A DNA stretch of 64,000 bases from an uncultured Chloroflexia bacterium. Lineage in GTDB: Bacteria > Chloroflexota > Anaerolineae > JAAYZQ01. Location of the stretch: contig CAVOXA010000014.1 in assembly GCA_963700285.1 (NCBI GenBank), forward strand, positions 896,001-960,000, given 5' to 3'. Below, one piece after another: positions 3,970 to 7,011 of this stretch. Positions within the stretch are counted from its first letter, which is position 1, and every line of letters starts with the position of its first letter. A program made the position numbers and the translations under genes. The notes under the pieces were generated by a model, which saw only the letters and a program-made list of their open reading frames with translations, was not told the DNA's origin and searched no databases.

Positions 3970-4278
3970 GGTGCGACACTGGCGTTTGCCTATCCCCAGT
4001 TCAAGGCCGGCGAGTTCGGCGGCGAGTTTTCGATGGGGAACGTGGACGACTATAAAGTTGGGGCCCGTGTTCTCAATCACAGGGGCAAGTTCTTCCTGTT
4101 ACGCACCGCAGATGGATTCAAGGCCCTGTATCAAGTCTGTACCCATCTGGGCTGCCTGGACCGCGAAATGGATGGCGGTTATGCTTACCCCTGTCACGGT
4201 TCCTTCTTCTCCCCTGACGGGAGACCATCACCGGTGGCCGGCCCGCCACCGCTGCGCCTGCCTGGGGCGCCCTGTTGA
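3970..4278 (+). pseudogene. Decayed Rieske [2Fe-2S] protein (cytochrome bc type) remnant
   Basis: CTHLGC is intact but box II reads YPCHGS instead of CPCHGS. The upstream in-frame GATLAFAYPQFKAGEFGG has no start codon or Tat leader. Confidence 0.6.
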
Positions 4279-4444
4279 GTACGCAGGAGATAGAGGACGC
4301 CATCGCGTTCCCAAGATCAAGACAGTAGTCACTCGGTATCCGAGCTGAGTCAACGAAGGCTTCAGCCGCGGGAAATCCCCAATGCTGCAGCCTTCTGTGT
4401 TGGACGGAGGAGAGCGGAAGTGCTGTGGGTTGAAAGGACAGTGT

Positions 4445-5906
4445 GTGAGAATTCTACTTGCTAGCCCAGAGTCGCACGTGTGGAACTCACGGGCTCACAT
4501 TCACATGGGGTTGGGCTACCTGGCCGGTTCGCTGCTAGAAGCCGGCTTCACCAACCTGACCCTCCACGACGACGCCGTCGAAACAGAGAACATTGCCGAG
4601 GCGCTGCAGCGCGCCACCGCGGAGGGCGAGCCCTATGACATCGTGGGCATTTCCAGCCCCACCCCCCTCATCAACGAGGCTTGGGATGCGGCCCGCCAGG
4701 CCAAGGAGGCGGGGGCCATCACCGTTCTCGGCGGACCCCACCTGACCCTCATGCCAGATGAATCAGCCCACAGGCCAGAGGTGGACCTGGTGGTCCGCGG
4801 CGAGGCAGAAGACACGCTCGTCGAGATCGTGAAACAGTTGGCGAACTGCAATCTGCAACTCACCGCCTGCAACCTGCGATCGATACTCGGGTTAACCTGG
4901 CGAAACGGGGATGGTCAGATAGTCCACAACCCGGCAAGGCCGCTGCGCGATGACCTGGACAATATCCCCTTTCCCGCTCACCAAATGTACAAAATGGAGC
5001 GCTATACCAACCTGCAGCCCCTGACAGATGGACTGGATCCCAACGCCCGGGCCTATACCATCGTCACCAGCCGCGGGTGCCCGTTCACCTGTACGTTCTG
5101 CTCCAAGCCGATCACGGGCGACACCTGGCGACCCCGCTCGGTGGAGAATGTGGTGGCCGAGTGGCGCTGGTTGGTGCAGGATCTGGGGGCCACCGAGATC
5201 GGCATTACCGACGATATCTGGAACCGGGATCTCGATCGGGCCAAGAACCTGTGCCGGGCGCTGATCCGCGAAGGGTTGAATACCACACCCTGGGTCACCG
5301 TCCACGGCATGAAAGTCAACTATGCGGATCCTGAGCTTTTCGAGCTGATGAAGGCCGCCGGCGCAAAGCGGGTGGGCTTTGGCGTAGAGAGCGGCGACGA
5401 GTATATCCTCTCCCGTGTCGTGCGCAAGGGGCAAACCCTGGCACAGACCCGCAATGCCTTCAAGTGGGCCAAAGCTGCCGGACTGCAGACCATGGGCTTC
5501 TTTGTCTTTGGCATGCCAGAAGAGACCGAAGAGACCATGGAAAAGACGACCAAATTGGCACTGGAACTGAGATCCAGACCTGGCCAATTTCATGATCGCC
5601 GCCCCTTATCCAGGCACGCAGCTCTACGATCTGCTGGAAAAGGAGGGCAACATCTTTAGCCATGACTGGACGGACTATGCCATCCACACCGACCAGGCCA
5701 AGTTCGAGATCGGTGACCTGAAGGCAGATCTTGTGGAGCGCAAGTGGCGCGAGGCCTACCGCCGCTTCTACTGGCGGCCAAAGCGGTTGATCAGGCGGTT
5801 GGCGATGCCCGACACCTGGCGGCATCTGCCCGCCCGCCTGCGAGATGCCCACCGTTTCTTTGTTGGCGGCAAGGGTACAAAGGGTGCCTCCAAGACGGCA
5901 GCTTGA
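4445..5906 (+). CDS. B12-binding domain radical SAM protein, frameshifted at ~5570
   Basis: [30 protein letters not shown]. Removing the extra A at 5570 restores [22 protein letters not shown] start follows GAAAGGA. Confidence 0.85.
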
Positions 5907-6001
5907 ATGCAAGCTGCGTCCGAGCCTGCAACCGGGCCCCACTCTCACCACAGGCAAGGTGAGAAGAAGGATCAAAGAGGCATGTGCAAGGAGGATCAAC
6001 G

Positions 6002-6253
6002 ATGAAGCGGGACAGTGTGATCCGCGCCAGCGAGATCGGCCAATACCGCTACTGCGCCCGGGCCTGGTGGTTGGGTCAGGTGATGGGCTACCAGTCCACG
6101 AATGTGGAGGCGATGCGCCGGGGCGAAGACCAGCACCGCGCTCACGGGCGCGGCGTGGTACGATACCACAGGTTGCGCTGGCTGGCCTTGGCTCTGCTCG
6201 GGTTGGCTGGAGCGGCCTTGGTGGCATGGTTGCTCCTGAGCTTGGGGCCATAA
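6002..6253 (+). CDS. Small membrane-anchored protein equal to the N-terminal part of a Cas4-like nuclease
   Basis: SD AAGGAGG. ASEIGQYRYCARAWWL carries the first Fe-S Cys motif of Cas4, then RRGEDQH, then a C-terminal hydrophobic helix. Confidence 0.75.
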   Translation: MKRDSVIRASEIGQYRYCARAWWLGQVMGYQSTNVEAMRRGEDQHRAHGRGVVRYHRLRWLALALLGLAGAALVAWLLLSLGP

Positions 6254-6254
6254 G

Positions 6255-6779
6255 ATGGCCATCTGGTTCCTCCTGGCTGCCTTGGTCACGGGTGGGCTGG
6301 GCATCTGGCTGCTACTGCGTGCAAGGTTCGCCCGCCAGGAGACCGGCCTGCCTTTGGGTCGTGTGGCCTACGTAGACACCGGTGCCTGGAACCGCTGTGA
6401 GCGGCCCCTATTCTCCGATCAGTACCGCTTGACCGGCCGGCCGGACTATCTGGTACAAGGTTCGAAAGGCATGATCCCGGTGGAGGTAAAATCCAGTGCC
6501 GCCCCCGGAAGACCGTATGCGGCGCATGTGCTACAGCTGGCGGCTTACTGCCTGCTGGTTGAGGAGCAGGAAGGTCAGGCGCCCCCATACGGTATCATCA
6601 AGTACCGCGATCGCACTTTCGAAGTTGAGTTCAGCCCTGGCCTCCGCACCGAACTGCTGGACACCCTCGACGCCATGCGCTGGGATTTGGGCGCCCGAGA
6701 GGTCGACCGGGATCACAGAGAGGCTGGACGCTGCCAGGCCTGCGGCTACCGTGAACGCTGCGATCAGCGACTGGCCTAA
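6255..6779 (+). CDS. cas4: Cas4-like PD-(D/E)XK nuclease (solo, no CRISPR locus) with N-terminal transmembrane helix
   Basis: GRPDYL, PVEVKS, QLAAY and C-terminal CQACGYRERC. The N-terminus is hydrophobic (MAIWFLLAALVTGGLGIWLLL). Confidence 0.85.
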   Translation: MAIWFLLAALVTGGLGIWLLLRARFARQETGLPLGRVAYVDTGAWNRCERPLFSDQYRLTGRPDYLVQGSKGMIPVEVKSSAAPGRPYAAHVLQLAAYCLLVEEQEGQAPPYGIIKYRDRTFEVEFSPGLRTELLDTLDAMRWDLGAREVDRDHREAGRCQACGYRERCDQRLA

Positions 6780-6969
6780 GGCTCCCATTGGCTGTTGCAG
6801 CACCCCATGCTTGGCCCAGAGTGGACCGAGCTCACCTGCAGTGGCCTCCAATCACCTTGTAGACGCTGCCGGGTTCGAGGTCATCAGGCATCCTGAACTT
6901 GAAGACTGGTACAATCCAGCTTCAGGCTGGTGAGCTGTCCCCCATCCTTTCTGGGCACTCGATCAGGAA

Positions 6970-6998
6970 TTGACGCAGCGTGAGAAGTGTGCTAAGAT
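6970..6998 (+). promoter_or_regulatory. Sigma70-type promoter for rluB-cmk
   Basis: TTGACG-17-TAAGAT with TG extension. Confidence 0.65.
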
Positions 6999-7011
6999 CG
7001 ACTCAGCCCCG

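Follow-up and report, generated by a model that had tools for sequence, protein, structure and literature searches.

The closest known relatives of the gene pair analyzed here are the Cas4 proteins of CRISPR adaptation (TIGR00372, PF01930; structures 8D3L/8D3Q, 4IC1 of SSO0001, 4R5Q, and 7MI4). Cas4 is one soluble polypeptide, in which the catalytic metal has a His ligand, His62 in the case of SSO0001 (PMC13621843). Genes of the family also occur outside CRISPR-cas loci and mobile elements, as solo-Cas4. A monophyletic solo-Cas4 has been described in many Chloroflexi, and also in Thermoanaerobacterales (Hudaiberdiev et al. 2017, PMC5704561), and the supplement of that study gives one solo-Cas4 each for species of Anaerolinea, Caldilinea, Chloroflexus, Roseiflexus, and Herpetosiphon. 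Its main text contains neither "split" nor "N-terminal," and its sole "membrane" stands in the legend of an unrelated figure. The solo-Cas4 of Methanosarcina mazei, also encoded outside CRISPR loci, has four cysteines and a [4Fe-4S] cluster and is a metal-dependent DNase, the Cys mutants of which lose the cluster and keep the activity (PMC12501428). It is one oligomeric protein, and the abstract of that work speaks of neither an anchor nor a split.

The pair lies in a stretch of 64,000 nucleotides (the window) of a Chloroflexota genome, in which both genes are present in one copy; its closest relatives carry the labels Anaerolineae, Chloroflexia, or Chloroflexota. It consists of two adjacent open reading frames (ORFs) on the forward strand, gene 1 at 6002–6253 (83 aa) and gene 2 at 6255–6779 (174 aa), with coordinates and motifs that agree with a preliminary description of the locus as a membrane-anchored Cas4-like nuclease split over two genes. 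A Shine-Dalgarno-like AGGAGG, which may serve as ribosome-binding site, is found 7 bases 5′ of the start of gene 1 (5989–5994). Gene 1 encodes the N-terminal part of a Cas4-type protein, that is, the first strand, Cys18 (6053–6055), and a helix with G41-x3-H45 (His45 at 6134–6136), and then a predicted membrane helix (aa 61–79, 6182–6238) with its N-terminus inside. At the junction (6251–6257), the stop codon of gene 1 (6251–6253) is separated by a single base from the ATG of gene 2. The latter starts with a predicted membrane helix (aa 3–21, 6261–6317) that would leave the C-terminal domain inside, and continues with a RecB-like/Cas4 catalytic core carrying P63-D64, E77-V-K79 (ExK), and Q94-x3-Y98 (6441–6548). 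Near its end is C160-x2-C163-x5-C169 (6732–6761), the predicted other three ligands of an Fe-S cluster of which Cys18 is the predicted first. Scans for a promoter and a terminator at the locus gave only chance-level results, and there is no RNA support from the single RNA run listed, which contains 0.06 of the words. The flanking genes in the window code for a B12 radical SAM protein, a pseudouridine synthase, and a cytidylate kinase. Further upstream, at 4033–4278, a stand-alone ORF of 81 aa has a weak match to Rieske [2Fe-2S] proteins (E 0.0013, below the cut-off).

The TIGR00372 (cas4) profile is divided between the two proteins, positions 2–47 matching gene 1 (E 0.0012, 18.8 bits) and positions 58–178 matching gene 2 (63.6 bits, slightly below the cut-off of 65). 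Gene 2 also matches PF01930 (Cas_Cas4) with 36.6 bits, above the cut-off of 22.7. Among solved structures, the profile of gene 2 finds only 8D3L chain I, at residues 101–200 (E 4e-5), and that of gene 1 aligns weakly with residues 4–48 of the same chain (E 0.16; second of six matches at E ≤ 10). In this alignment, Cys18 falls in the N-terminal Cys region and His45 on the His of 8D3L, so that His45 is likely the metal-binding His of Cas4 and would correspond to His62 of SSO0001. The RecB-like set of H, PD, ExK, and QxxxY is complete only across both chains, and the set of four cysteines (one N-terminal, three C-terminal) is complete but divided between them. All the motifs listed in the preliminary description, among them G-x-x-x-H in gene 1 and PD..EVK, QxxxY, and CxxCxxxxxC in gene 2, were found as it gave them. 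Motif order and fold are common to the pair and to CRISPR Cas4. Unlike CRISPR Cas4, the pair is made of two genes, each with a hydrophobic helix, has two predicted membrane helices after the His helix, and occurs in a genome with no match to cas1.

The claim that no CRISPR locus accompanies the pair was borne out, as there is no Cas1 match in the genome (89% complete), no CRISPR-like array in the window (by a search for 21-mer repeats), and no cas1 among the 22 recurrent neighbor clusters scanned in related loci. The pair would work like Cas4, but it is not the Cas4 of CRISPR adaptation. Located neither in a CRISPR-cas locus nor in a mobile element, it has the genomic context that defines solo-Cas4, and gene 2 is probably the catalogued Chloroflexi solo-Cas4 of PMC5704561.

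Two adjacent genes might also be a single gene that an assembly error has broken, or one whose halves the cell joins again through frameshifting or read-through. The preliminary description had considered an inserted A near 6250, the removal of which would fuse the genes as ...GPKMAIW.... Four public runs were compared over 5400–7000, X3 and X4 having no coverage of the junction. In the other two, assembled contigs rather than raw reads (X1 record 1 and X2 record 10, from two samples of one study and about 97% alike) run across it, and neither shows an indel near 6250. Contigs of these two runs do differ by one missing base at 5569, 680 bases upstream in the neighboring gene, and hence this comparison can reveal one-base errors. 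That the assembly has a probable one-base error so close by, and that natural fusions of the two halves exist (see following), speaks for a broken gene. Against it are the two indel-free contigs and the variety of arrangements among relatives, in which all three frame offsets are found and extra genes are inserted between the halves. In one genome (G017) a distance of 9.6 kb on a single contig separates the two halves, and in others they lie on different contigs. Moreover, the best 150 of the 1,218 gene 1 profile matches are all 73–133 aa long. An assembly error at the junction was therefore rejected, given the indel-free contigs and the separate or unlinked halves of relatives, and so were programmed frameshifting and read-through, because the frame offset differs among relatives and the two genes need not be linked. 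A broken or re-joined gene is extremely improbable here, and for the family this reading is refuted.

Frameshifts, some of them probable assembly errors, are found elsewhere in these data. The B12-binding radical SAM gene (4382–5906) is spread over two frames, probably by an assembly error, since the X1 and X2 contigs lack the base at 5569. In the same genome, recN (C1:879525–881281) appears as two overlapping match pieces, probably from another assembly frameshift, and in a 76%-complete genome gene 2 is in frameshifted pieces, through either error or decay (L211, G020:C43).

The two genes closely co-occur. Of the 150 related loci compared (140 of them unique), 135 encode the halves as separate ORFs, adjacent in 119 and further off in 16, and a single locus (L057) has both within one ORF. 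In the remaining 14, gene 1 is absent nearby (13 have none, and one has a spurious match on the opposite strand). Gene 1 was found elsewhere in 9 of the 10 genomes searched behind these 14 loci (two loci belong to one genome, and three with 20–888 upstream bases were left out), and in the only miss (G042) gene 2 is near a contig end. Within the class, gene 2 is present in 37 of 41 genomes, and five members lacking gene 2 also lack gene 1. A sample of 301 genomes of the phylum, the kin in which are not independent, includes 60 with a close match to gene 2 (E ≤ 2.5e-36), and 59 of these also contain gene 1. The gene 1 profile gathers 1,218 clusters at E ≤ 0.001, and a C-terminal hydrophobic helix is present in 146 of the best 150. 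A search for fused forms close to the protein of the window yielded, from the gene 1 profile, one "longer" match (162 aa, on a contig of 593 bases), which was rejected because its tail is unrelated; this search was weak, its scores covering the top 7,994 candidates.

Both genes are under purifying selection. In seven genome pairs dN is well below dS and alike for both genes (one dS is saturated); for example, against a genome of the same genus, dN and dS are 0.028 and 0.367 for gene 1 and 0.037 and 0.362 for gene 2. In gene 1, C18, W22, G41, and H45 are each present in 112/112 homologs. In the close group of gene 2, the catalytic residues D64, E77, K79, Q94, and Y98 are each present in 120/120 proteins, and C160, C163, and C169 in 119/120.

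The hydrophobic helices are conserved too. By the best 19-residue Kyte-Doolittle window, those of the pair reach 2.50 (gene 1) and 2.24 (gene 2), and values of at least 1.6 are found at the C-terminus of gene 1 in 111/112 homologs and at the N-terminus of gene 2 in 140/140 unique loci. Hence the two-gene, two-helix layout, for which the preliminary description had proposed a search of homologs, is a conserved trait. The Lys/Arg-rich side of a membrane helix is generally the cytoplasmic one (the positive-inside rule). Lys and Arg are richer before the helix than after it in 101 of 112 gene 1 homologs, and richer after it than before in all 96 gene 2 homologs with a nearby Met; both soluble parts would therefore be cytoplasmic. 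This orientation, proposed from the sequence of one pair, is supported by the charge bias and by the natural hairpin fusions, the helices being judged from hydropathy, charge bias, and structure models. The ordinary Cas4-like matches of the same phylum (n = 15, weaker matches) are single chains with hydropathy of at most 1.31, in which the His helix passes directly into the segment that opens the core of gene 2. Because ordinary Cas4 is continuous at this point, the two helices are an insertion after the His helix. Anchors directly after that helix would bring the active site near the membrane.

A structure prediction of the two proteins together, suggested in the preliminary description, returned a complex. 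The score was 0.81, against 0.00 for the best of three controls, on a scale where 116 of 157 solved pairs reach the mark, as do 2 of 215 mismatched ones, and where halves of split genes pass easily through likeness to solved Cas4 structures. At least 90% of the contacts agree between runs, and the pLDDT of the partner is 76. Predicted contacts join helix 55–76 of gene 1 with helix 5–23 of gene 2, and strand 7–9 of gene 1 with 58–61 of gene 2, and the interface sets the C18 region against residues 159–160 and 163–169, in a model without cluster. Residues 35–54 of gene 1, including H45, are outside the confident contacts. According to this model, the first strand of gene 1 is predicted to complete the sheet of gene 2, the helices to pack against each other, and C18 to join the three cysteines of gene 2. 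The idea that the cluster is shared between the chains thus gains from four cysteines conserved across the pair and from the place of C18 in the predicted interface. Sharing of the cluster as the sole gate of activity is weakened by the Cys mutants of M. mazei, which stay active. Gene 2 alone is likely crippled in another way, because the likely counterpart of the metal ligand His62 sits in gene 1, and the strand and His that gene 1 contributes probably account for the need to pair as much as the cluster does.

A search with the 339-aa chain of L057 (P0124), which contains both halves, gave 194 matches. The 120 matches listed are mostly from Ktedonobacteria by name; in 16 of them one chain contains both hydrophobic helices, with a short loop between, and some of these chains are encoded on contigs of 5.9 and 8.9 Mb. 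Such chains support the hairpin topology. Ktedonobacteria-type forms (P0124–P0148; L053, L057–L059, L062, L067, L068, and L208) have a longer gene 1 part and repeated fusions. A model of P0124 from a 15-row alignment (pLDDT 73, the other four models having 54–55, and a single-sequence fold being unusable at 47) contains long helices at 116–145 and 153–195. Its fold matches best SSO0001 and type I-C Cas4, and then ACE1 and Dna2. The tree of 84 core domains, a quick tree of 130 columns, places all 71 anchored forms on one side and 13 of the 15 ordinary Cas4-like proteins of the phylum on the other, with an SH-aLRT of 91 that is below the tool's mark of 95. Nine fusions are scattered among the split forms (seven changes, at least two of them forced), which suggests repeated re-joining.

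The same matches show losses of a catalytic residue. Among those listed, the catalytic Asp is missing in 13 of the 16 fused forms and in 26 of the 104 gene-2-sized Ktedonobacteria-type proteins, while the C-terminal Cys triad is kept in all 120, including the 39 without Asp. Cutting is thus probably dispensable in some lineages, and these Asp-less forms are probable membrane-bound pseudo-nucleases. In a sporadic clade of Chloroflexota (L060, L063–L066, and L069), a Cys replaces the Pro before the catalytic Asp. Its genes lie among transposases, AbiEii, Schlafen, and helicase genes, and one genome (G108) has two copies.

Further nucleases can be compared with the pair. The next-ranked fold matches of P0124 are other nucleases of the Fe-S or RecB-like kinds, namely ACE1 (9IAB, 9IAC), Dna2 (5EAN), Exo5 (7LW7), MGME1, and AdnA. 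Unlike the pair, all these are single-chain nuclease domains, and they are not known to have membrane helices inside the domain. Single-helix membrane anchors occur in the nucleases RmuC, NucA/EndA, and RNase Y, each of one chain and with no shared Fe-S site; NucA/EndA faces outward and has a different fold, and RNase Y cuts RNA.

Copies of the pair are also found on plasmids. Gene 2 matches 8 of 72,556 plasmid records. Of the four plasmids examined, three have both genes intact, each gene with its helix (Singulisphaera pSINAC03, Paludisphaera PALBO2, and B. subtilis CP120602.1). In the fourth, Planctomyces pPL62-2, gene 2 is broken behind an IS, and the annotated ORFs that were tested include no gene 1. 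In two further plasmids of B. subtilis, gene 2 is present with 96–99% identity. On CP120602.1, where P5635_00215 and P5635_00210 make up the pair, a DinG-like helicase is encoded two genes upstream of the pair, and DinG-like helicases are found near some other mobile copies. This plasmid (65 kb, PLSDB type non-mobilizable) also has TcpD/TcpE conjugation genes and a Flp/Tad pilus cluster, and DinG-like helicase, pair, and hfq form one run of genes. When metagenomes were scanned with the two planctomycete proteins, 29 loci emerged. Gene 1 is adjacent in 15 of them; the remaining 14 are short or partial, and in several of these no gene 1 turned up despite upstream DNA. The 10 longest of these loci make 8 distinct neighborhoods, of which 58 of 80 ORFs were scanned. 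Five of the eight contain restriction-modification, CBASS-like, AbiE, PIN, or DUF488 genes, a count that refers to a distant clade and has no background control; the other three contain a transposase, pilin-like genes, and housekeeping genes, respectively. No viral copies were found in IMG/VR contigs (two alignments) or in 50,697 phage records. In PADLOC 2.0 the pair matches no gene set of a described anti-phage system, the only matches being those to Cas4, a Cas1 fusion, and the DruK nuclease domain.

In summary, the architecture is supported at the level of sequence by two conserved genes that are separate, by their match to the two halves of Cas4, by motifs that are complete across the pair, by strict co-occurrence, and by natural hairpin fusions. 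We read the pair as a putative obligate two-chain, membrane-tethered, and cytoplasm-facing Fe-S DNase, and regard the architecture itself as highly probable. Such an enzyme would be expected to carry a [4Fe-4S] cluster, to act as a metal-dependent DNase, and to be active only once its chains have paired. Gene 1 would supply a strand, one Cys, and the His, and gene 2 the rest; the helices of both proteins would meet in the membrane, forming the Fe-S site and the active site, and the assembled nuclease would trim or destroy DNA entering at the inner face of the membrane. That the two halves form an Fe-S enzyme of the Cas4 type that likely trims or degrades DNA, most likely incoming DNA, on the cytoplasmic side of the membrane is the reading we moderately favor. 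Its least certain part is the substrate. Membrane location and mobile copies make DNA arriving at the membrane the likeliest one, and its origin in phage injection, conjugation, or uptake is a tentative proposal, possible but short of probable. A point against a role in defense is that in the lineage of the window the pair is single-copy and lies amid housekeeping genes, unlike typical defense systems; defense islands are the setting of its mobile relatives only. ComEC gives no co-occurrence signal; it is present in 270 of 301 genomes and therefore does not track the pair.

The same facts suit a membrane-bound, two-part housekeeping enzyme that acts on the cell's own DNA, in repair, on recombination intermediates, or on DNA at division sites, with the mobile copies as later recruits. 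The pair is single-copy and near-universal in several families (19/19, 17/18, and 21/21 genomes), is inherited among housekeeping genes, and is without a signal from ComEC; the published solo-cas4 genes are mostly vertical in their evolution and without signs of an arms race (PMC5704561). Among the recurrent neighbors in the 140 unique loci are ssb (30) and recN (19), along with DUF3467 (33) and NAD kinase (27). Yet neither ssb nor recN is linked to the pair in the present genome, the pair was not found in many other families of the phylum (301-genome sample), and this alternative leaves the membrane anchors unexplained. We consider it the main rival, though an unlikely one. With a gene 2 of 174 aa and no helicase among the recurrent neighbors of the core group, the pair shows neither fusion nor coupling to a UvrD-like helicase of the AddB/RecB/AdnAB type. 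Other neighbors are of narrower distribution. A YkuD L,D-transpeptidase gene directly precedes gene 2 in 10 loci (e.g., L117:5146–5922), between the halves where both are visible, and in seven loci (L033, L039, L040, L044, and L046–L048) the pair follows a gene for an M50 (RseP-like) protease, with two small conserved ORFs lacking Pfam matches downstream.

The most frequent neighbor raises the possibility that the pair acts on RNA, or with a translin/TRAX-like RNase, as a membrane module of nucleic-acid turnover in the manner of RNase Y. A homolog of translin/Trax (NCBIfam "haloacid dehalogenase superfamily," PRK14562; E 2e-23 with A. fulgidus Trax, AfTrax) is encoded upstream of the pair in 77 of the 140 unique loci, for example at L023:584–1222, and mostly as the next gene. 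This gene is not linked to the pair in the present genome (C15:11236–11871), nor in those loci of the Ktedonobacteria type or on plasmids that were examined, and it is present in 167 of 301 genomes of the phylum, many without the pair. Hence the translin-like protein, which had been a candidate for an obligate partner, is not supported in that role. Since the nearest solved relatives by fold are DNases, an RNA substrate seems very improbable. Scarcely less improbable is a membrane-bound scaffold for DNA binding or Fe-S sensing, with catalysis secondary; the Ktedonobacteria-type proteins that lack the Asp and keep the Cys triad would fit such a role, but in the group of the window the catalytic residues are invariant (120/120).

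A Cas4 that is split or anchored in the membrane was not found described within the full texts searched, which were judged mostly from listings and include few subscription journals. Passages of PMC13621843, PMC12669027, PMC4158269, and PMC6563490 do not mention one, nor do those of PMC3424549, the domain-architecture supplements of which were outside the search. The pair is thus a real and conserved variant of the Cas4 kind that apparently has not been described before. The solo-Cas4 of Chloroflexota, as annotated, is probably half an enzyme. In databases the larger half is named Cas4 and the smaller half mostly hypothetical, so that a study limited to the annotated gene would be lacking a Cys, the His, and a strand. 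An Fe-S nuclease built from two membrane proteins is an unusual design, one that points to DNA at the membrane, and the copy on a B. subtilis plasmid makes its role directly testable in a standard laboratory host. It is conceivable, though rather doubtful, that these proteins form an old and widespread family of membrane gatekeepers, in which a Cas4-type enzyme divided at a membrane hairpin chews entering DNA. If so, the nuclease would be kept off the chromosome until its helices meet in the membrane, it would be encoded by a core gene of several Chloroflexota classes that also travels on plasmids and in defense islands, and a bacterial class of solo-Cas4 would have a concrete job.
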